From: a virus
Lineage: Duplodnaviria; Heunggongvirae; Uroviricota; Caudoviricetes
IMG/VR virus record: IMGVR_UViG_2778261353_000008
Length of the DNA: 43,754 bases
Strand: one strand, 5' to 3'
Shown in pieces: positions 4,474 through 38,300 of the stretch. The position numbers were made by a program, and so were the translations under genes. Position 1 is the stretch's first letter; each line of letters begins with the position of its first letter. A model generated the notes under the pieces. The model was not told where the DNA came from. It saw nothing but the letters and a program-made list of their open reading frames with translations, and did no database searches.

Positions 4474-4890
4474 TTATACCTCTGAATCAATATCAACCTG
4501 GTGGTGAGCAATGGTTTCAACCATGTACCGGATGTGTTCTGCCATGCGCTCCTGAAACTCAACATCGTCATCAAACGCACGGGTAATGGCTTTTTTGCTG
4601 GCCCCGTGGCGTTGTAAATGATCGATGCAGAGTGATTCAAACAGGTGCTGGGGCAGACCTTTTTCCATGTCGTCTGCCAGTTCTGCCTCTTTCTCTTCAC
4701 GGGCGATCTGCTGGTAGTGACGCGTCCAGCTCTGAGCCTCAAGACGATCCTGAATGTAATAAGCGTTCATGGCTGAACTCCTGAAATAGCTGTGAAAATA
4801 TCGCCCGCGAAATGCCGGGCTGATTAGGAAAACAGGAAAGGGGGTTAGTGAATGCTTTTGCTTGATCTCAGTTTCAGTATTAATATCCAT
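4474..4890 (-). CDS. gam: Host nuclease inhibitor Gam
   Basis: 138 aa, matches lambda Gam long form ([55 protein letters not shown]...). Confidence 0.96.
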
Positions 4891-4988
4891 TTTTTATAAG
4901 CGTCGACGGCCTCACGAAACATCTTTTCATCGCCAATAAAAGTGGCGATAGTGAATTTAGTCTGGATAGCCATAAGTGTTTGATCCAT
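4845..4988 (-). CDS. kil: Kil (FtsZ inhibitor), 47 aa
   Basis: ORF 4845..5114 trimmed to internal Met [47 protein letters not shown], matching lambda Kil. Confidence 0.85.
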
Positions 4989-5121
4989 TTTTTGGGACTC
5001 CTGGCTGATTAAGTATGTCGATAAGGCGTTTCCATCCGTCACGTAATTTACGGGTGATTCGTTCAAGTAAAGATTCGGAAGGGCAGCCAGCAACAGGCCA
5101 CCCTGCAATGGCATATTGCAT
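4957..5121 (-). CDS. cIII: CIII (FtsH inhibitor stabilising CII), 54 aa
   Basis: Hand-translated from reverse complement: [54 protein letters not shown]; overlaps kil as in lambda; absent from ORF track (<60 aa). Confidence 0.88.
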   Translation of the reverse strand: MQYAIAGWPVAGCPSESLLERITRKLRDGWKRLIDILNQPGVPKNGSNTYGYPD

Positions 5122-5193
5122 GGTGTGCTCCTTATTTATACATAACGAAAAACGCCTCGAGTGAAGCGTTATTGGTATGCGGTAACGCCGCGC

Positions 5194-5562
5194 TCAGGCG
5201 GCTTTGATAGTCATATCATCTGAATCAAATATTCCTGATGTATCGATATCGGTAATTCTTATTCCTTCGCTACCATCCATTGGAGGCCATCCTTCCTGAC
5301 CATTTCCATCATTCCAGTCGAACTCACACACAACACCATATGCATTTAAGTCGCTTGAAATTGCTATAAGCAGAGCATGTTGCGCCAGCATGATTAATAC
5401 AGCATTTAATACAGAGCCGTGTTTATTGAGTCGGTATTCAGAGTCTGACCAGAAATTATTAATCTGGTGAAGTTTTTCCTCTGTCATTACGTCATGGTCG
5501 ATTTCAATTTCTATTGATGCTTTCCAGTCGTAATCAATGATGTATTTTTTGATGTTTGACAT
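5194..5562 (-). CDS. ea10: Ea10-like early protein (122 aa)
   Basis: Length and position (between cIII and ral) match lambda ea10; flanking DNA matches lambda sequence I recall. Confidence 0.8.
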   Translation of the reverse strand: MSNIKKYIIDYDWKASIEIEIDHDVMTEEKLHQINNFWSDSEYRLNKHGSVLNAVLIMLAQHALLIAISSDLNAYGVVCEFDWNDGNGQEGWPPMDGSEGIRITDIDTSGIFDSDDMTIKAA

Positions 5563-5724
5563 CTGTTCATATCCTCATAGATAAAAAATCGCCCTCACAC
5601 TGGAGGGCAAAGAAGATTTCCAATAATCAGAACAAGTCGGCTCCTGTTTAGTTACGAGCGACATTGCTCCGTGTATTCACTCGTTGGAATGAATACACAG
5701 TGCAGTGTTTATTCTGTTGTTAGT

Positions 5725-5753
5725 GCCAAAAATAAAGGCCGACTATGCGGCCT
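5725..5753 (-). terminator. Putative rho-independent terminator downstream of the membrane-protein cassette
   Basis: Minus-strand RNA would form AGGCCG/CGGCCT stem (6 bp, 6-nt loop) followed by UUAUUUUUGG; sits immediately 3' of ORF 5758..6207. Confidence 0.5.
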
Positions 5754-5757
5754 GAAA

Positions 5758-6207
5758 TTACTTAACCAATGATGCTGCATATTCGATAAGGTAAAGCTTT
5801 GGAGCCAGCAAAATTTTTAACCATGTCATATTGGTTACTGCACTAATAATAAAAATCCCCCACAGAGCCAAAACTCCAACTAATGGCATGATAAGAAGAT
5901 TAATATCACCTTTGCTATCCCAAACCATTGTCGGCCTGTATTTGGGATTTCCCTTCTCCCATGAATATCCTTCATCACTGATTTTACCTGTCTCAACTCT
6001 TCGACACTGCTTCTTCATAAACCAGAAAACCAGTGGGATTGTTAGAATGGCTATTAATGTTTTAATCAGACTGTCAACCATATTCCATAGCAGCAACTGA
6101 TGAACAACATCAGGAATCTGCGCCTGGCTGAATGAAACAGCCGTGTCTATTCCATTGCTGGCTTTTTGCAGTAGTTCTACGAGAATCTTGTTTGCTTGTT
6201 CTTCCAT
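5758..6207 (-). CDS. Hypothetical integral membrane protein (149 aa), cassette inserted between ea10 and ral
   Basis: Two strongly hydrophobic segments (LIKTLIAILTIPLVFWFM and LLIMPLVGVLALWGIFIISAV); AAGGGG RBS upstream of ATG; AT-rich; absent from lambda at this junction. Confidence 0.65.
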   Translation of the reverse strand: MEEQANKILVELLQKASNGIDTAVSFSQAQIPDVVHQLLLWNMVDSLIKTLIAILTIPLVFWFMKKQCRRVETGKISDEGYSWEKGNPKYRPTMVWDSKGDINLLIMPLVGVLALWGIFIISAVTNMTWLKILLAPKLYLIEYAASLVK

Positions 6208-6266
6208 ATATCCCCTTGATTGTAATAAGCATGAAATTATTTACGGCCAAAAAATAAAGGCCACCA

Positions 6267-6467
6267 TCAGGCAGCCTTGTTGTTCTGTTTACCAAGTTCT
6301 CTGGCAATCATTGCCGTCGTTCGTATTGCCCATTTATCGACATATTTCCCATCTTCCATTACAGGAAACATTTCTTCAGACTTAACCATGCATTCCGATT
6401 GCAGCTTGCATCCATTGCATCGCTTGAATTGTCCACACCATTGATTTTTATCAATAGTCGTAGTCAT
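6267..6467 (-). CDS. ral: Restriction alleviation protein Ral
   Basis: 66 aa, matches lambda Ral (MTTTIDKNQWCGQFKRCNGCKLQSECMVK.EEMFPVMEDGKYVDKWAIRTTAMIARELGKQNNKAA). Confidence 0.95.
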   Translation of the reverse strand: MTTTIDKNQWCGQFKRCNGCKLQSECMVKSEEMFPVMEDGKYVDKWAIRTTAMIARELGKQNNKAA

Positions 6468-6595
6468 ACGGATAGTCCTGGTATTGTTCCATCACATCCT
6501 GAGGATGCTCTTCGAACTCTTCAAATTCTTCTTCCATATATCACCTCAAATAAGTGGTTTGCTGCCTAATTTTATTTTCTGGCGACCAACACAAG

Positions 6596-6868
6596 TCACC
6601 TTGCTGTCAGTTGTTTTGATTTCCTGTAGCCTGCCGCGTAAAGAGCTACATTTGGAAGACAAGTTGAGCCTTCATATTTTCTGGTCAACGTTGTCAGTGT
6701 TATTACTTCTGCTCTCATTGCTGGTTTGCGCTTGCATTGCAAGACCACTCGAGAGGGGGTTGGTCTGTGTAGCTTGTCGGAGCTAATCGCCTCCTGACTT
6801 TGCAGGTTTGCGCGACGAGCTCTACGACGAGAAGCTGAGGTGCCTTTAAATTCTGTTTTTCTGGACAT
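6596..6868 (-). CDS. N: Antitermination protein N (P22 gp24-like, non-lambda)
   Basis: ORF 6596..6952 trimmed to Met preceded by GGGAGG RBS; arginine-rich motif SASRRRARRA near N-terminus; C-terminus LPNVALYAAGYRKSKQLTAR resembles P22 gp24 C-terminus; sits between ral and pL. Confidence 0.8.
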   Translation of the reverse strand: MSRKTEFKGTSASRRRARRANLQSQEAISSDKLHRPTPSRVVLQCKRKPAMRAEVITLTTLTRKYEGSTCLPNVALYAAGYRKSKQLTAR

Positions 6869-6966
6869 AGATTCCTCCCGAATAAACTTTGGTGATGCAA
6901 TCTCGAAGCTCCTCCTGAGACGGTTGCTTCGGCATTGCATCCCACAGCTCATGTGGTTGGGTGATC

Positions 6967-7013
6967 TGGCTTTTCAGCCACGTAGTCGAGAGTTCGACGT
7001 TGTTTAAAGAGCC
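6967..7013 (-). promoter_or_regulatory. Putative nutL (boxA-like GGCUCUUUAA followed by boxB-like hairpin UGGCUGAAAAGCCA)
   Basis: Seen on reverse complement between pL candidate and N start; boxB loop GAAAA as in lambda; stem differs from nutR by compensatory changes (GGC/GCC vs CGC/GCG). Confidence 0.5.
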
Positions 7014-7051
7014 TGCCAGTCTGTTCCGTTTGGCTTCCAGCGTCCTGCTGA

Positions 7052-7087
7052 CGGTTAAATAGTACGATATGTACTTTATTGGGTCAA
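7052..7087 (-). promoter_or_regulatory. Putative pL with operator OL1
   Basis: On minus strand: -35 TTGACC, 17-nt spacer, -10 TACTAT; palindrome AGTACATATCGTACT (7061..7075) overlaps spacer and -10 and closely matches a site in the pR candidate. Confidence 0.5.
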
Positions 7088-7272: not shown

Positions 7273-7300
7273 AAAGAAAACCCGGCGCTGAGGCCGGGTG
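7273..7300 (-). terminator. t_imm-like rho-independent terminator ending the cI operon
   Basis: CCCGGC..GCCGGG stem followed on the minus-strand RNA by UUUUCUUUG; surrounding ~120 nt match the lambda sequence I recall between OL and rexB. Confidence 0.6.
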
Positions 7301-7308
7301 GGGTTTTG

Positions 7309-7479
7309 TTATTGGTGCATTTGGCAGACTGTAGTATCAGGTCCATAAGCCAAAGTAAAAACAGGCTTGTTGATCAATCCGTTGTTCTTTAATGATTGAA
7401 TCATTTTACCTTGCTCGCTAACTTTTTGCTTGCTAAGTATTTCTGCCACTTGCTGTGTCAGTGATTTGTCTTTGCTCAT
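7309..7479 (-). CDS. Small ORF (56 aa) translationally coupled to the upstream peptidase-like gene
   Basis: Hand-translated MSKDKSLTQQVAEILSKQKVSEQGKMIQSLKNNGLINKPVFTLAYGPDTTVCQMHQ; its ATG directly follows the TAA of the 300-aa gene (TAAATG); ends 9 nt before the t_imm hairpin; below ORF-track cut-off. Confidence 0.45.
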   Translation of the reverse strand: MSKDKSLTQQVAEILSKQKVSEQGKMIQSLKNNGLINKPVFTLAYGPDTTVCQMHQ

Positions 7480-8382
7480 TTATGACTCACTTTGTTCTGA
7501 GAAGGGGAATGAAGACAGAACAAGAACCTGTCGATTTGTCTTATACATGTATTCATTAATGACGTTGTGCAGATTTTTTAACGCCATGCTAAAATCTTTG
7601 TCGTATGTAAAGTCTTCTACTTTAATTCTTAAGTCATTGATAAGAGTATTTATTCCTATCGTTCTTCCGTGAGAATGCCACTTTCCGTTGTCACTAAGAG
7701 CGGTAGCGATCATTTTAGCTCTCGCTTCTTTTTCCCTCTTGGAAACTAGCTTTCCTCGTTTTGTGTTACCTTGATGAACCGTCCACTCTCTGAATTTATA
7801 CTCTACAAGCCACTTCTTAAGCAAGTCTATTGATAGCTCTCTGGCTTGCTCGTATCTCCTTAAGTGCGCAAGATCTAACTGACTAAGCATCATTAGTTCA
7901 GCTTGGGTAATGGTTCCTTCTCTGGATTTAGTAATCATTTCTTCAACTTTATCAAGGTATCCCAAAGCAGGAACCCATTTACCGTCAGAGGATTGCACTT
8001 GAGGGTCAATGGGGCCTAATGAAGAAGCATAGTTCATGTAAATTTTATCTCCAGACATACACCATATTGTGCCTGCCGACATGGCCATATCTGGAATGAT
8101 AAAATATACCTCTTGATAGAAATGCCTTGTAATTTCTACCATTTTTTCCACAGACTCAACAGAGCCACCATTTGTATTGAGTATAATAACTAGAAATCTA
8201 TTGGTACGACTGTTAGCCATCTCCCCAATAGCCTCAAGTTTTGGTTGGTAAACTTCTTTTGACCATGGAAAGATACCACCGTAGTACGCTATGACGTCGC
8301 AGCTTGGGAAAAAGTTATTTTTAAATTGCTCTAACTGCCAAGAAATGTATGTTTCTAGTGTTGAATCAAGATTTTGGCTCAT
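7480..8382 (-). CDS. Clp-fold serine-peptidase-like protein (S49/SDH-family-like) in the rexAB slot
   Basis: 300 aa; motifs VIILNTNGGSVESVEKMVEI, IIPDMAMSAGT (putative Ser nucleophile), SSLGPIDPQ; immediately downstream of cI on the same strand; AT-rich; family assignment is from motif memory only. Confidence 0.6.
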   Translation of the reverse strand: MSQNLDSTLETYISWQLEQFKNNFFPSCDVIAYYGGIFPWSKEVYQPKLEAIGEMANSRTNRFLVIILNTNGGSVESVEKMVEITRHFYQEVYFIIPDMAMSAGTIWCMSGDKIYMNYASSLGPIDPQVQSSDGKWVPALGYLDKVEEMITKSREGTITQAELMMLSQLDLAHLRRYEQARELSIDLLKKWLVEYKFREWTVHQGNTKRGKLVSKREKEARAKMIATALSDNGKWHSHGRTIGINTLINDLRIKVEDFTYDKDFSMALKNLHNVINEYMYKTNRQVLVLSSFPFSEQSES

Positions 8383-33300: not shown

Positions 33301-33998
33301 TGCAGGATATCCGACAGGAAACACTGAATGAATGCACCCGTGCGGAGCAGTCGGCCAGCGTGGTGCTCTGGGAAATCGACCTGACAGAGGTCGGTGGAGA
33401 ACGTTATTTTTTCTGTAATGAGCAGAACGAAAAAGGTGAGCCGGTCACCTGGCAGGGGCGACAGTATCAGCCGTATCCCATTCAGGGGAGCGGTTTTGAA
33501 CTGAATGGCAAAGGCACCAGTACGCGCCCCACGCTGACGGTTTCTAACCTGTACGGTATGGTCACCGGGATGGCGGAAGATATGCAGAGTCTGGTCGGCG
33601 GAACGGTGGTCCGGCGTAAGGTTTACGCCCGTTTTCTGGATGCGGTGAACTTCGTCAACGGAAACAGTTATGCCGATCCGGAGCAGGAGGTGATCAGCCG
33701 CTGGCGCATTGAGCAGTGCAGCGAACTGAGCGCGGTGAGTGCCTCCTTTGTACTGTCCACGCCGACGGAAACGGATGGCGCTGTTTTTCCGGGACGTATC
33801 ATGCTGGCCAACACCTGCACCTGGACCTATCGCGGTGACGAGTGCGGTTATAGCGGTCCGGCTGTCGCGGATGAATATGACCAGCCAACGTCCGATATCA
33901 CGAAGGATAAATGCAGCAAATGCCTGAGCGGTTGTAAGTTCCGCAATAACGTCGGCAACTTTGGCGGCTTCCTTTCCATTAACAAACTTTCGCAGTAA
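33300..33998 (+). CDS. L: Minor tail protein L
   Basis: 232 aa matching lambda gpL. Confidence 0.95.
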   Translation: MQDIRQETLNECTRAEQSASVVLWEIDLTEVGGERYFFCNEQNEKGEPVTWQGRQYQPYPIQGSGFELNGKGTSTRPTLTVSNLYGMVTGMAEDMQSLVGGTVVRRKVYARFLDAVNFVNGNSYADPEQEVISRWRIEQCSELSAVSASFVLSTPTETDGAVFPGRIMLANTCTWTYRGDECGYSGPAVADEYDQPTSDITKDKCSKCLSGCKFRNNVGNFGGFLSINKLSQ

Positions 33999-34003
33999 AT
34001 CCC

Positions 34004-34747
34004 ATGACACAGACAGAATCAGCGATTCTGGCGCACGCCCGGCGATGTGCGCCAGCGGAGTCGTGCGGCTTCGTGGTAAGCACGCCGGAGGGGGAAAGAT
34101 ATTTTCCCTGCGTGAATATCTCCGGTGAGCCGGAGGCGTATTTCCGTATGTCGCCGGAAGACTGGCTGCAGGCAGAAATGCAGGGTGAGATTGTGGCGCT
34201 GGTCCACAGCCACCCCGGTGGTCTGCCCTGGCTGAGTGAGGCCGACCGGCGGCTGCAGGTGCAGAGTGATTTGCCGTGGTGGCTGGTCTGCCGGGGGACG
34301 ATTCATAAGTTCCGCTGTGTGCCGCATCTCACCGGGCGGCGCTTTGAGCACGGTGTGACGGACTGTTACACACTGTTCCGGGATGCTTATCATCTGGCGG
34401 GGATTGAGATGCCGGACTTTCATCGTGAGGATGACTGGTGGCGTAACGGCCAGAATCTCTATCTGGATAATCTGGAGGCCACAGGGCTGTATCAGGTGCC
34501 GTTGTCATCAGCACAACCGGGCGATGTGCTGCTGTGCTGTTTTGGTTCATCGGTGCCGAATCATGCCGCCATTTACTGTGGTGATGGCGAGCTGCTGCAC
34601 CATATTCCTGAACAACTGAGCAAACGAGAGAGGTATACCGACAAATGGCAGCGACGCACACACTCCCTCTGGCGTCACCGGGCATGGCGCGCATCTGCCT
34701 TTACGGGGATTTACAACGATTTGGCCGCCGCATCGACCTTCGTGTGA
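34004..34747 (+). CDS. K: Tail assembly protein K (JAB/MPN plus NlpC/P60-like)
   Basis: HSHPGG JAMM-like motif; matches lambda gpK; start taken from the long ORF (the classical lambda annotation starts later in the same frame). Confidence 0.85.
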   Translation: MTQTESAILAHARRCAPAESCGFVVSTPEGERYFPCVNISGEPEAYFRMSPEDWLQAEMQGEIVALVHSHPGGLPWLSEADRRLQVQSDLPWWLVCRGTIHKFRCVPHLTGRRFEHGVTDCYTLFRDAYHLAGIEMPDFHREDDWWRNGQNLYLDNLEATGLYQVPLSSAQPGDVLLCCFGSSVPNHAAIYCGDGELLHHIPEQLSKRERYTDKWQRRTHSLWRHRAWRASAFTGIYNDLAAASTFV

Positions 34748-35375: not shown

Positions 35376-38300
35376 ATGGGTAAAGGCAGCAGTAAGGGGC
35401 ATACTCCGCGCGAAGCGAAGGACAACCTGAAGTCCACGCAGTTGCTGAGTGTGATCGATGCCATCAGCGAAGGGCCGGTTGAAGGTCCGGTGGATGGATT
35501 AAAAAGCGTGCTGCTGAACAGTACGCCAGTGCTGGACAGTGAGGGGAATACCAATATCTCCGGCGTCACGGTGGTGTTCCGGGCCGGTGAGCAGGAGCAG
35601 ACACCGCCGGAGGGATTTGAATCCTCCGGCTCCGAGACGGTGCTGGGTACGGAAGTGAAATACGACACGCCGATCACCCGGACCATCACGTCGGCAAACA
35701 TTGACCGACTGCGTTTTACCTTCGGCGTGCAGGCACTGGTGGAAACCACCTCAAAGGGGGACAGGAATCCGTCGGAAGTCCGCCTGCTGGTTCAGATCCA
35801 GCGTAATGGTGGCTGGGTGACGGAAAAAGACATCACCATTAAGGGCAAAACCACCTCGCAGTATCTGGCCTCGGTGGTGGTGGGTAACCTGCCGCCGCGC
35901 CCGTTCAATATCCGGATGCGCAGGATGACGCCGGACAGCACCACAGACCAGCTGCAGAACAAAACGCTCTGGTCGTCATACACCGAAATCATCGATGTGA
36001 AACAGGGCTACCCGAACACGGCACTGGTCGGCGTGCAGGTGGATTCGGAGCAGTTCGGCAGCCAGCAGGTGAGCCGTAATTATCATCTGCGCGGGCGCAT
36101 TCTGCAGGTGCCGTCGAGCTATAACCCGCAGACGCGGCAATACAGCGGTATCTGGGACGGAACGTTTAAGCCGGCATACAGCAACAACATGGCCTGGTGT
36201 CTGTGGGATATGCTGACCCATCCGCGCTACGGCATGGGGAAACGTCTTGGTGCGGCGGATGTGGACAAATGGGCGCTGTATGTCATCGGCCAGCATTGCG
36301 ATCAGTCGGTGCCGGACGGTTTTGGCGGCACGGAGCCGCGCATCACCTGTAATGCGTACCTGACCACACAGCGCAAGGCGTGGGATGTGCTCAGTGATTT
36401 CTGCTCTGCGATGCGCTGTATGCCGGTATGGAACGGGCAGACGCTGACGTTCGTGCAGGACCGACCGTCGGATAAGGTGTGGACCTATAACCGCAGTAAT
36501 GTGGTGATGCCGGATGATGGTGCGCCGTTCCGCTACAGCTTCAGCGCCCTGAAGGACCGCCATAATGCCGTTGAGGTGAACTGGATTGACCCGAATAACG
36601 GCTGGGAGACGGCGACAGAGCTTGTGGAGGACACGCAGGCCATTGCCCGTTACGGTCGTAACGTCACGAAGATGGATGCTTTTGGCTGTACCAGCCGGGG
36701 GCAGGCACACCGCGCCGGGCTGTGGCTGATTAAAACAGAACTGCTGGAAACGCAGACCGTGGACTTCAGCGTGGGTGCCGAAGGGCTTCGCCATGTACCG
36801 GGCGATGTCATTGAAATCTGCGATGATGACTATGCCGGTATCCGCACCGGCGGGCGCGTGCTGGCGGTAAACAGCCAGACCCGGACGCTGACGCTCGACC
36901 GTGAAATCACGCTGCCATCTTCCGGCACCACGCTGATAAGCCTGGTTGACGGGCAGGGGAGTCCGGTCAGCGTGGAGGTTCAGTCCGTCACCGACGGCGT
37001 GAAGGTGAAAGTGAGCCGTGTTCCTGACGGCGTTGCTGAATACAGCGTATGGGGGCTGAAGCTGCCGACGCTGCGCCAGCGCCTGTTCCGCTGCGTGAGT
37101 ATCCGTGAGAACGACGACGGCACGTATGCCATCACCGCCGTGCAGCATGTACCGGAAAAAGAGGCCATCGTGGATAACGGGGCGCACTTTGACGGCGACC
37201 AGAGCGGCACGGTAAATGGTGTCACGCCGCCAGCGGTGCAGCACCTGACCGCAGAAGTCACCGCAGACAGCGGGGAATACCAGGTGCTGGCCCGCTGGGA
37301 CACGCCGAAGGTGGTGAAGGGCGTGAGCTTCCTGCTTCGCCTGACCGTGGCAGCGGATGACGGCCGTGAGCGGCTGGTCAGCACGGCCCGGACGACGGAA
37401 ACCACTTACCGCTTCACACAACTGGCTCTGGGGAACTACAGGCTGACAGTCCGGGCAGTAAATGCGTGGGGGCAGCAGGGCGATCCGGCGTCGGTATCGT
37501 TCCGGATTGCCGCACCGGCAGCGCCGTCGCGGATTGAGCTGACGCCGGGCTATTTTCAGATAACCGCCACGCCGCATCTTGCGGTTTATGACCCGACGGT
37601 ACAGTTTGAGTTCTGGTTCTCGGAAAAACGGATTGCGGATATCAGGCAGGTTGAAACCAGCGCGCGTTATCTTGGTACGGCACTGTACTGGATAGCCGCC
37701 AGTATCAATATCAAACCGGGCCATGATTATTATTTTTACGTTCGCAGTGTGAACACCGTTGGCAAATCGGCATTCGTGGAGGCTGTCGGTCAGCCGAGTG
37801 ATGATGCATCAGGCTATCTGGATTTTTTCAAAGGAGAAATCGGGAAAACACATCTGGCCCAGGAGCTGTGGACGCAGATTGATAACGGTCAGCTTGCGCC
37901 GGACCTGGCTGAAATCAGGACGTCCATTACGAATGTCAGCAATGAAATCACGCAGACCGTCAATAAAAAACTGGAAAATCAGAGTGCGGCAATCCAGCAG
38001 ATACAGAAAGTTCAGGTTGATACAAATAATAACCTGAACAGCATGTGGGCCGTGAAACTGCAGCAGATGCAGGACGGACGCCTTTATATTGCGGGTATCG
38101 GTGCCGGTATTGAGAATACGCCAGCAGGAATGCAGAGTCAGGTGCTGCTGGCGGCAGACAGGATTGCGATGATTAATCCTGCGAATGGCAACACAAAGCC
38201 GATGTTTGTTGGTCAGGGCGATCAGATATTTATGAATGAAGTGTTCCTGAAATATCTGACGGCTCCCACCATTACCAGCGGCGGTAATCCTCCGGCATTT

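Follow-up and report, generated by a model that had tools for sequence, protein, structure and literature searches.

In the window, by which we mean the whole 43,754-nt stretch of tailed-phage DNA analysed here, the gene inserted between ea10 and ral is a new allele of a catalogued, uncharacterised family, that of Sf6 gene 34 (gp34) or PHROG 3054, at a junction that the Sf6 record marks as a mosaic boundary. Our preferred reading, to which we assign a probability of roughly 0.4, is that this gene forms an accessory cassette at the mosaic junction, that its expression is N-dependent, and that it encodes a two-pass membrane protein with a role in the lytic cycle, for which superinfection exclusion is our guess. 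For the window itself the finding carries little weight, being one more allele of a catalogued accessory gene and an ordinary genome feature. The wider point is that the family is among the larger phage membrane-protein families, and has neither a curated model nor a known function.

The ea10/ral junction and its hairpins

The minus strand of the window bears a lambda-like early-left operon; the features referred to in the text are listed by window position.

4474-4890, minus strand: gam
~4845-5121, minus strand: kil and cIII
5194-5562, minus strand: ea10 (DUF2528), downstream of the cassette (ORF and lambda match)
5583-5703, minus strand: conserved intergenic boundary segment left of the cassette (tL2A hairpin and bsq4 equivalent)
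5725-5740: left copy of the junction repeat, GCCAAAAATAAAGGCC
5726-5753, minus strand: the cassette's own terminator-like site, including the left repeat copy (scan and fold)
5758-6207, minus strand: inserted ORF, 149 aa (ORF list)
6208-6247, minus strand: short leader running from the ral-end terminator to the ATG; Shine-Dalgarno sequence AAGGGGA at 6217-6211
6246-6262: right copy of the junction repeat, GCCAAAAAATAAAGGCC
6248-6278, minus strand: ral-end hairpin and T-run, including the right repeat copy (scan and fold)
6267-6467, minus strand: ral (restriction alleviation), upstream of the cassette in the pL transcript (ORF)
6596-6952, minus strand: N-like gene
6965-7087, minus strand: presumed pL and nutL-like elements (promoter scan and sequence inspection)

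Pairwise blastn revealed about 520 bp between ea10 and ral that are extra relative to lambda and to phage 2B8. Lambda 33342-34087 aligned with window 5000-5746 at 98.8% identity, and lambda 34059-34381 with window 6237-6562 at 96.9%; the two lambda alignments overlap, so that about 29 bp of lambda sequence is represented twice, to the left and to the right of some 490 bp of new DNA. The same empty site was found by blastn in 2B8, and ea10 and ral are directly adjacent in lambda, 2B8 and PhiR57_1. These comparisons agree with the initial annotation, made from the sequence alone, which had placed an insert between ea10 and ral with lambda-like DNA on both sides. It had also reported a duplicated sequence at the two junctions, and both its strings and its coordinates were correct: the 13-mer AAAAATAAAGGCC is common to the two repeats (5728-5740 and 6250-6262) and occurs twice in the 43.7-kb window, at the junctions only, with 0.01 copies expected from shuffles. 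Its description of the segment as AT-rich held as to direction, the GC content of the insert (39.4%) being lower than that of the flanks (41.8% and 45.0%), but the contrast is weak.

Close to the junctions we also noted a 15-nt imperfect direct repeat (13 of 15 positions identical; GCCTGAAATTACTTA and GCATGAAATTATTTA, window 5750-5764 and 6229-6243), one among 12 such short families reported in 1 kb. One copy lies across the stop codon of the inserted ORF and the other just past the T-run of the ral-end hairpin, upstream of the ORF. This repeat could be what is left of a former cassette end, or could be due to chance.

The junction repeat itself is accounted for by two terminator-like hairpins. 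The first, found by terminator scan and folding, begins 4 nt past the stop codon of the inserted ORF and is formed by AGGCCGCATAGTCGGCCT (5753-5736) followed by TTTATTTTTGG, its T-run being given as TTATTTTTGG (dG -9.7 kcal/mol). The second, AAGGCTGCCTGATGGTGGCCTT (6278-6257) followed by TATTTTTTGG, overlaps the ral stop codon (dG -13.9 kcal/mol). The repeat corresponds to the descending arm and T-run common to both hairpins, and the cassette is bracketed by it because each of them, at the ral end and in the cassette, closes with this sequence, GGCCTTTATTTTTGG. The left copy had been proposed to act as a terminator for the inserted gene, and it does indeed constitute the 3' arm and T-run of the hairpin at 5736-5753. 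Variants of the cassette hairpin are kept 3' of the gene in Gally, Stx2a_EH2086, HF4s and Sf6, and in Oslo and HK639 other, unrelated hairpins with a T-run occupy the same place after the gene. The sole exception among the lambdoid copies examined was PhiR46_1, which had no clear hairpin and T-run after the gene.

The ral-end hairpin also behaves as a boundary common to phages with a different upstream gene. In VT2-Sakai, H0090 is found in place of ral with the same hairpin retained (blastn boundary at 6250-6283), and in Gally, where the upstream gene is GALLYPH_31, the boundary falls at 6283. On the other side of the cassette, immediately upstream of ea10, is a third hairpin (5610-5589; dG -12.9, z -3.9), the counterpart of "tL2A" in the Sf6 record. 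When the Sf6 features are transferred via blastn, the "bsq4 boundary sequence" (113 bp) falls on window ~5591-5703.

As a separate observation, the ral-stop hairpin (6257-6278) is more stable than its counterpart at lambda 34070-34091 (-13.9 vs -6.0 kcal/mol, the lambda form having a z of +0.5). Two window substitutions fall in this hairpin, both strengthening the stem, and the stronger form is also present in 2G7b, VT2-Sakai, Sf6 and Gally.

Gally, a P22-like phage, carries the same cassette and flanks (window 5581-6283, 95.6% identity) downstream of its different gene, and so does the Stx2a phage EH2086 over window 5581-6661 (96%). The order in Sf6 is ral, gene 34, its terminator, then bsq4/tL2A. 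In 2G7b a different ORF of 65 aa lies between 5703 and 6250 and starts exactly at the bsq4 end; this ORF (1214-1411 of the compared segment) is without its own terminator. Among 5,426 complete E. coli genomes, 2,253 contained the boundary segment, 649 both flanks together, and 130 (~2%) the full insert. In the sampled rows the flank pairs mostly delimited an empty lambda-type junction with a 584-bp span, a few having spans of 647, 926 or 1,002 bp. The ea10/ral junction is thus a recurrent swap site, polymorphic for an empty state, the cassette or alternative occupants.

Strains UTAK-3 and UTAK-18, in which the prophage occupies the argU/intD site, have the insert with 100% identity. A further 100%-identical copy was found at 35914-36418 of NZ_CP130669.1 (E. 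coli SM107), a 111-kb record listed among plasmids, which might represent a phage-plasmid or else a prophage contig that was not placed.

The initial annotation had suggested insertion or exchange at a terminator-like sequence and, relative to lambda, this is borne out by the blastn boundaries and by the two hairpin sites. That the insertion is a new one at this junction is not supported: the gene is widespread there, for example as Sf6 gene 34 beside bsq4/tL2A, and occurs in virulent phages as well. We considered a target-site duplication left by a mobile element and rejected it, as the segment contains no transposase or integrase and the "repeat" consists of two terminator arms; the presence of the same cassette and flanks in unrelated lambdoid backbones also opposes it. 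That same presence fits homologous exchange. Most likely, recombination between lambdoid phages brought the cassette in by way of the conserved flanks; homologous exchange there would be the simplest history, and a transposition-like event appears less likely.

This arrangement resembles the Sf6 bsq4 boundary (linker) sequences of lambdoid mosaics, in which exchange points coincide with conserved intergenic blocks: the left flank of the cassette is the bsq4/tL2A segment, and the right flank is a hairpin common to different upstream genes. It differs from them in that two terminators sharing an arm and a T-run make the junction look like a short direct duplication. The junction cleanly illustrates that repeat-bracketed "insertions" arise, with no transposition involved, when terminators share an arm.

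Probable expression from the early-left operon

The inserted gene shares its strand with N, ral and ea10 and is co-oriented with pL. Upstream of N, a promoter scan detected a pL-like promoter, TTGACC-17-TACTAT (7087-7059), and sequence inspection revealed a boxA-like GCTCTTTAA at ~7012-7004 and boxB-like hairpins at 6998-6985 and 6979-6968. By their position and resemblance to the lambda and P22 nut sites, we infer that these are putative pL and nutL elements. A consensus scan of the minus strand from ral to the ATG, which may miss weak or non-canonical sites, found no sigma-70-like promoter; in the best candidate by eye, TTGGCC-17-TATTAC, the -10 hexamer does not end in the conserved T. Upstream identity with HF4s and Oslo was limited to about 25 nt before the ATG, Shine-Dalgarno sequence included, and no promoter-like upstream block conserved across lambdoid contexts was seen. 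In HF4s the ATG of the gene lies 8 nt past the end of N.

Because no promoter travels with the gene and pL/nut-like elements lie upstream, delayed-early, N-dependent expression from pL is the pattern we would expect. In a repressed prophage the cassette should be silent, and probably is, judging from its sequence context. Upon induction or infection, N-modified polymerase starting at pL would read through the ral-end hairpin, and the cassette would be transcribed as a delayed-early gene.

This bears on the term "moron", which had been applied to the insert. Morons in the sense of Juhala and Hendrix are defined by an extra gene, its own terminator and its own promoter active in the repressed prophage. 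The window gene is an extra gene between its neighbours and has a computationally predicted terminator of its own, but has no promoter by the scan described above. Like the morons HK97 gp15, lambda bor and lom, it combines an extra gene, its own terminator and somewhat lower GC, and its family is found at several genomic positions; the difference lies in the promoter, none of its own being detected or conserved, and in its apparent dependence on the early-left operon. With no sigma-70-like promoter, none conserved, and the HF4s gene 8 nt after N, the strict use of the term is not supported: a gene that carries no promoter of its own and should be read from pL is not an autonomous, prophage-expressed moron.

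Concerning its neighbours, ral has 97% DNA identity to lambda ral and is named "antirestriction Ral family protein" by RefSeq in the identical UTAK-3 prophage. Immediately 5' of ral in the pL transcript we noted a short, highly acidic ORF (MEEEFEEFEEHPQDVME..., 6484-6540, minus strand), which falls in a stretch matching lambda DNA.

A two-pass membrane-protein family with conserved tails

Profile comparison matched residues 1-149 of the product to positions 1-137 of the 137-position phrog_3054 profile (E=4.7e-62), and 77 of 77 diverse relatives also mapped to it. Other members are HK639_44, Phi92_gp220 and the "TMhelix containing protein" of Nahant Vibrio phages. The match of Sf6 gp34 is full-length by HMM and its position is also the same, although its TM1-loop-TM2 core (aa ~42-127) is of a different allele type from that of the window. 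The family comprises at least 1,847 clusters at 50% identity in an exhaustive representative search at E<=1e-3, and 487 at E<=1e-10. Among the best 150 matches listed, lengths ranged from 70 to 184 aa and no domain fusions were seen. Source records name members "hypothetical protein" or "Phage transmembrane protein", and the PHROG label is unknown function.

Searches with the inserted ORF gave no significant match in Pfam, NCBIfam or PADLOC (in PADLOC, 0 families at E<=1), and a Pfam scan of 31 family members was likewise without a significant match. A sub-threshold hit of 3 of these 31 members to EIID-AGA (Pfam, E=0.067) was set aside as noise from transmembrane composition. A profile search of PDB sequences returned 0 matches, and Foldseek against BFVD retrieved uncharacterised family members only. 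Functional data on the family were not found in the searchable literature.

The regions of the 149-aa product are as follows.

aa 1-41: N-tail, acidic
aa ~42-64: TM1
aa 65-102: basic loop
aa ~103-125: TM2
aa 127-149: C-tail, aromatic and amphipathic

The two transmembrane-like segments noticed in the initial annotation are borne out by hydropathy, the 19-residue Kyte-Doolittle maxima of the two hydrophobic segments being 2.0 and 2.5. Both segments are strong in all 77 members aligned (mean 19-residue values 2.3 and 2.2). In these sequences the N-tail is always 41 aa long, acidic (median 2 K/R, 5 D/E) and nearly invariant, and the C-tail, which carries the motif WLxIWxAPKxxLxEYAAxLxK, has a constant length of 23 aa; the inter-TM loop ranges from 20 to 57 aa. 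M1, P32, W41, I132, A135, P136, K137, E142 and Y143 are invariant, and the tails are nearly invariant even in N4-like Vibrio phages. K/R residues are richer on the loop-side than on the tail-side TM flanks in 74 of the 77 (mean 4.4 vs 1.3) and, by the positive-inside rule, this bias assigns the loop to the cytoplasm and the conserved tails, N- and C-terminal alike, to the periplasmic face. The predicted topology, from that rule alone, is thus a two-pass inner-membrane protein with periplasmic tails. AlphaFold2 models built from 46- and 77-sequence alignments were mostly helical and of low confidence (pLDDT 61-62).

Comparison with six relatives gave an overall dN/dS of 0.18-0.33, with values of 0.02-0.13 in the tails (except for the C-tail against Oslo, 0.24) and 0.37-0.49 in the core. 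As judged from these ratios, the inserted gene is functional and under purifying selection, with the tails as its most constrained part. The conserved tails would then be the likely functional surface, and the TM hairpin core an exchangeable anchor. Between Sf6 gene 34 and the window gene, the first 124 nt are 97% and the last 67 nt 92% identical, and the core is unalignable as DNA. At the DNA level the pair is thus an intragenic mosaic, with the conserved ends as exchange points.

Carriers of the family include temperate P22-like and lambda-like phages and HK639, as well as virulent phages, namely N4-like podoviruses of Vibrio, Salmonella and Shigella and phi92-like myoviruses (Phi92_gp220). 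Many Vibrio siphoviruses, Pseudomonas phages and a Ralstonia jumbo phage with three copies were also recovered; the protein is matched at three separate places in the genome of Ralstonia phage RsoM2USA (MG752970.1), which suggests paralogues within one genome. In lambdoid phages, N, ral or sieB lies upstream of the gene and recombination or SSB genes downstream. In virulent phages its neighbours are thymidylate synthase, dUTPase, a Pol III-like exonuclease, a DUF2800 nuclease or an AAA ATPase. PhiR46_1 has a 74%-identical copy in its late region, between Rz and Nu1 (2500-2949 of the compared segment), and two related siphophages have distant copies between head-completion and tail genes (5001-5399 and 5001-5426 of the compared segments). 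These late-operon copies indicate that the gene moved between transcription units during evolution. The neighbourhood survey across phages found no constant partner gene, and the protein therefore probably acts alone or on a host component.

Possible functions of the product

The presence of the gene in virulent phages, together with the lack of a constant neighbour, argues for an autonomous role in lytic growth. Most likely, the product would exert this role at the membrane during lytic development. Our best guess is that it blocks or modifies an inner-membrane step used by superinfecting phage DNA, following a logic like that of T4 Imm, an early-expressed small inner-membrane protein that blocks DNA entry. 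The likeness to T4 Imm is a functional analogy only (a small two-TM protein, early in the lytic cycle, virulent phages included); the window protein differs in its long conserved N- and C-tails, and neither it nor 31 relatives matched the Pfam Imm family at E<=1. Exclusion is proposed here for the lytic cycle, rather than as prophage-state immunity.

Homology provides no guide in this respect: none was found linking the Sf6 gp34/PHROG 3054 family to any function and, as no member has an assigned one, membership says nothing on mechanism. Exclusion proteins are usually narrow in specificity, and the near-invariance of the tails across differing virions and hosts would fit a conserved host target as well or better. 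Copies in the late region and in structural modules, places where prophage-expressed morons are typical, count against a view restricted to the N operon.

A counter-defence role, in which an early membrane protein neutralises a membrane-acting host or prophage defence (Rex-like or another abortive-infection effector), seems unlikely to us on balance. It would place the product in functional analogy with its neighbours Ral (anti-restriction) and Gam (anti-RecBCD), in the same part of the pL operon as Ral, Gam/Abc and P22 gene 17. The position in virulent phages, in the company of early and nucleotide-metabolism genes and thus in a setting frequent for counter-defence genes, agrees with such a role, as do the patchy occurrence and the variable core. 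However, no homology to known anti-defence proteins was found, the best-conserved portions have a predicted periplasmic location whereas most known effectors act on the cytoplasmic side, and a core dN/dS below 1 gives no arms-race signature.

We hold it quite improbable that the gene is a moron expressed in the prophage and that its membrane protein keeps superinfecting phages out of the lysogen in the manner of SieB, SieA or HK97 gp15. The product is a small two-TM protein of patchy, accessory distribution whose gene has its own terminator, and copies do occur in classical moron slots, as with Rz/Nu1 in PhiR46_1 and head-completion/tail in the two siphophages. On the other hand, the gene has no promoter-like site and no conserved upstream block, it is co-oriented with pL behind a hairpin, and the HF4s copy is fused into the N transcription unit. 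The family is also frequent among strictly virulent phages, and these form no lysogen that would need protection.

The earlier suggestion of a SieB-like protein in particular was not sustained. SieB of lambda and P22 is likewise an accessory membrane protein in the N-ral region of lambdoid pL operons, but P22 sieB is antisense to pL, with an annotated promoter, and is prophage-expressed, whereas the window gene is co-oriented with pL. None of 31 members matched the Pfam SieB family at E<=1, and no Pfam, PADLOC or NCBIfam model matched the product. Alignment of the family against P22 SieB by hhalign gave a probability of 0.1%; for P22 SieA, hhalign gave 0.2% and BLASTP an E of 0.21. Moreover, sieB and the family gene are found together in Oslo.

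A role in modulating lysis or membrane physiology, whether as a holin- or antiholin-like protein or by regulating proton-motive force or the envelope, is very unlikely. In its favour, the protein is almost wholly membrane-embedded or membrane-associated and may oligomerise, its monomer model is of low confidence despite strong conservation, and in two contexts lysis genes are only a few genes away. Against it, here and in most phages the gene is outside the lysis cassette, its expression in lambdoid phages is from the early operon, neither the protein nor 31 relatives matched a Pfam holin, and the highly charged C-terminus typical of holins is absent.

Returning to the lytic-cycle cassette that we favour, a broader and more doubtful proposal is that PHROG 3054 represents a functionally new, widespread class of phage inner-membrane effectors whose two invariant, periplasm-facing tails would engage a conserved envelope target or a component of the incoming phage. 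In such a class the TM-hairpin/loop core could be swappable, and the conserved gene ends could also serve as linkers for recombination, a use suggested by the intragenic mosaic of Sf6 and the window. The conserved tails, the variable core and the occurrence in ~2% of complete E. coli genomes and in virulent N4- and phi92-like phages make the family a reasonable screening target.

Apart from the cassette, the window contains a 300-aa ORF between the cI-like repressor and pL (7309-8382, minus strand), the slot of rexAB in lambda. No PADLOC match was obtained for this region; in the UTAK-3 prophage, which is identical, the ORF bears the RefSeq name "SDH family Clp fold serine proteinase". Directly downstream of it lies a 56-aa ORF (7309-7479), and a terminator-like hairpin is at 7280-7299. 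By its position, the ORF at the rexAB slot is a candidate prophage-expressed accessory or defence gene.
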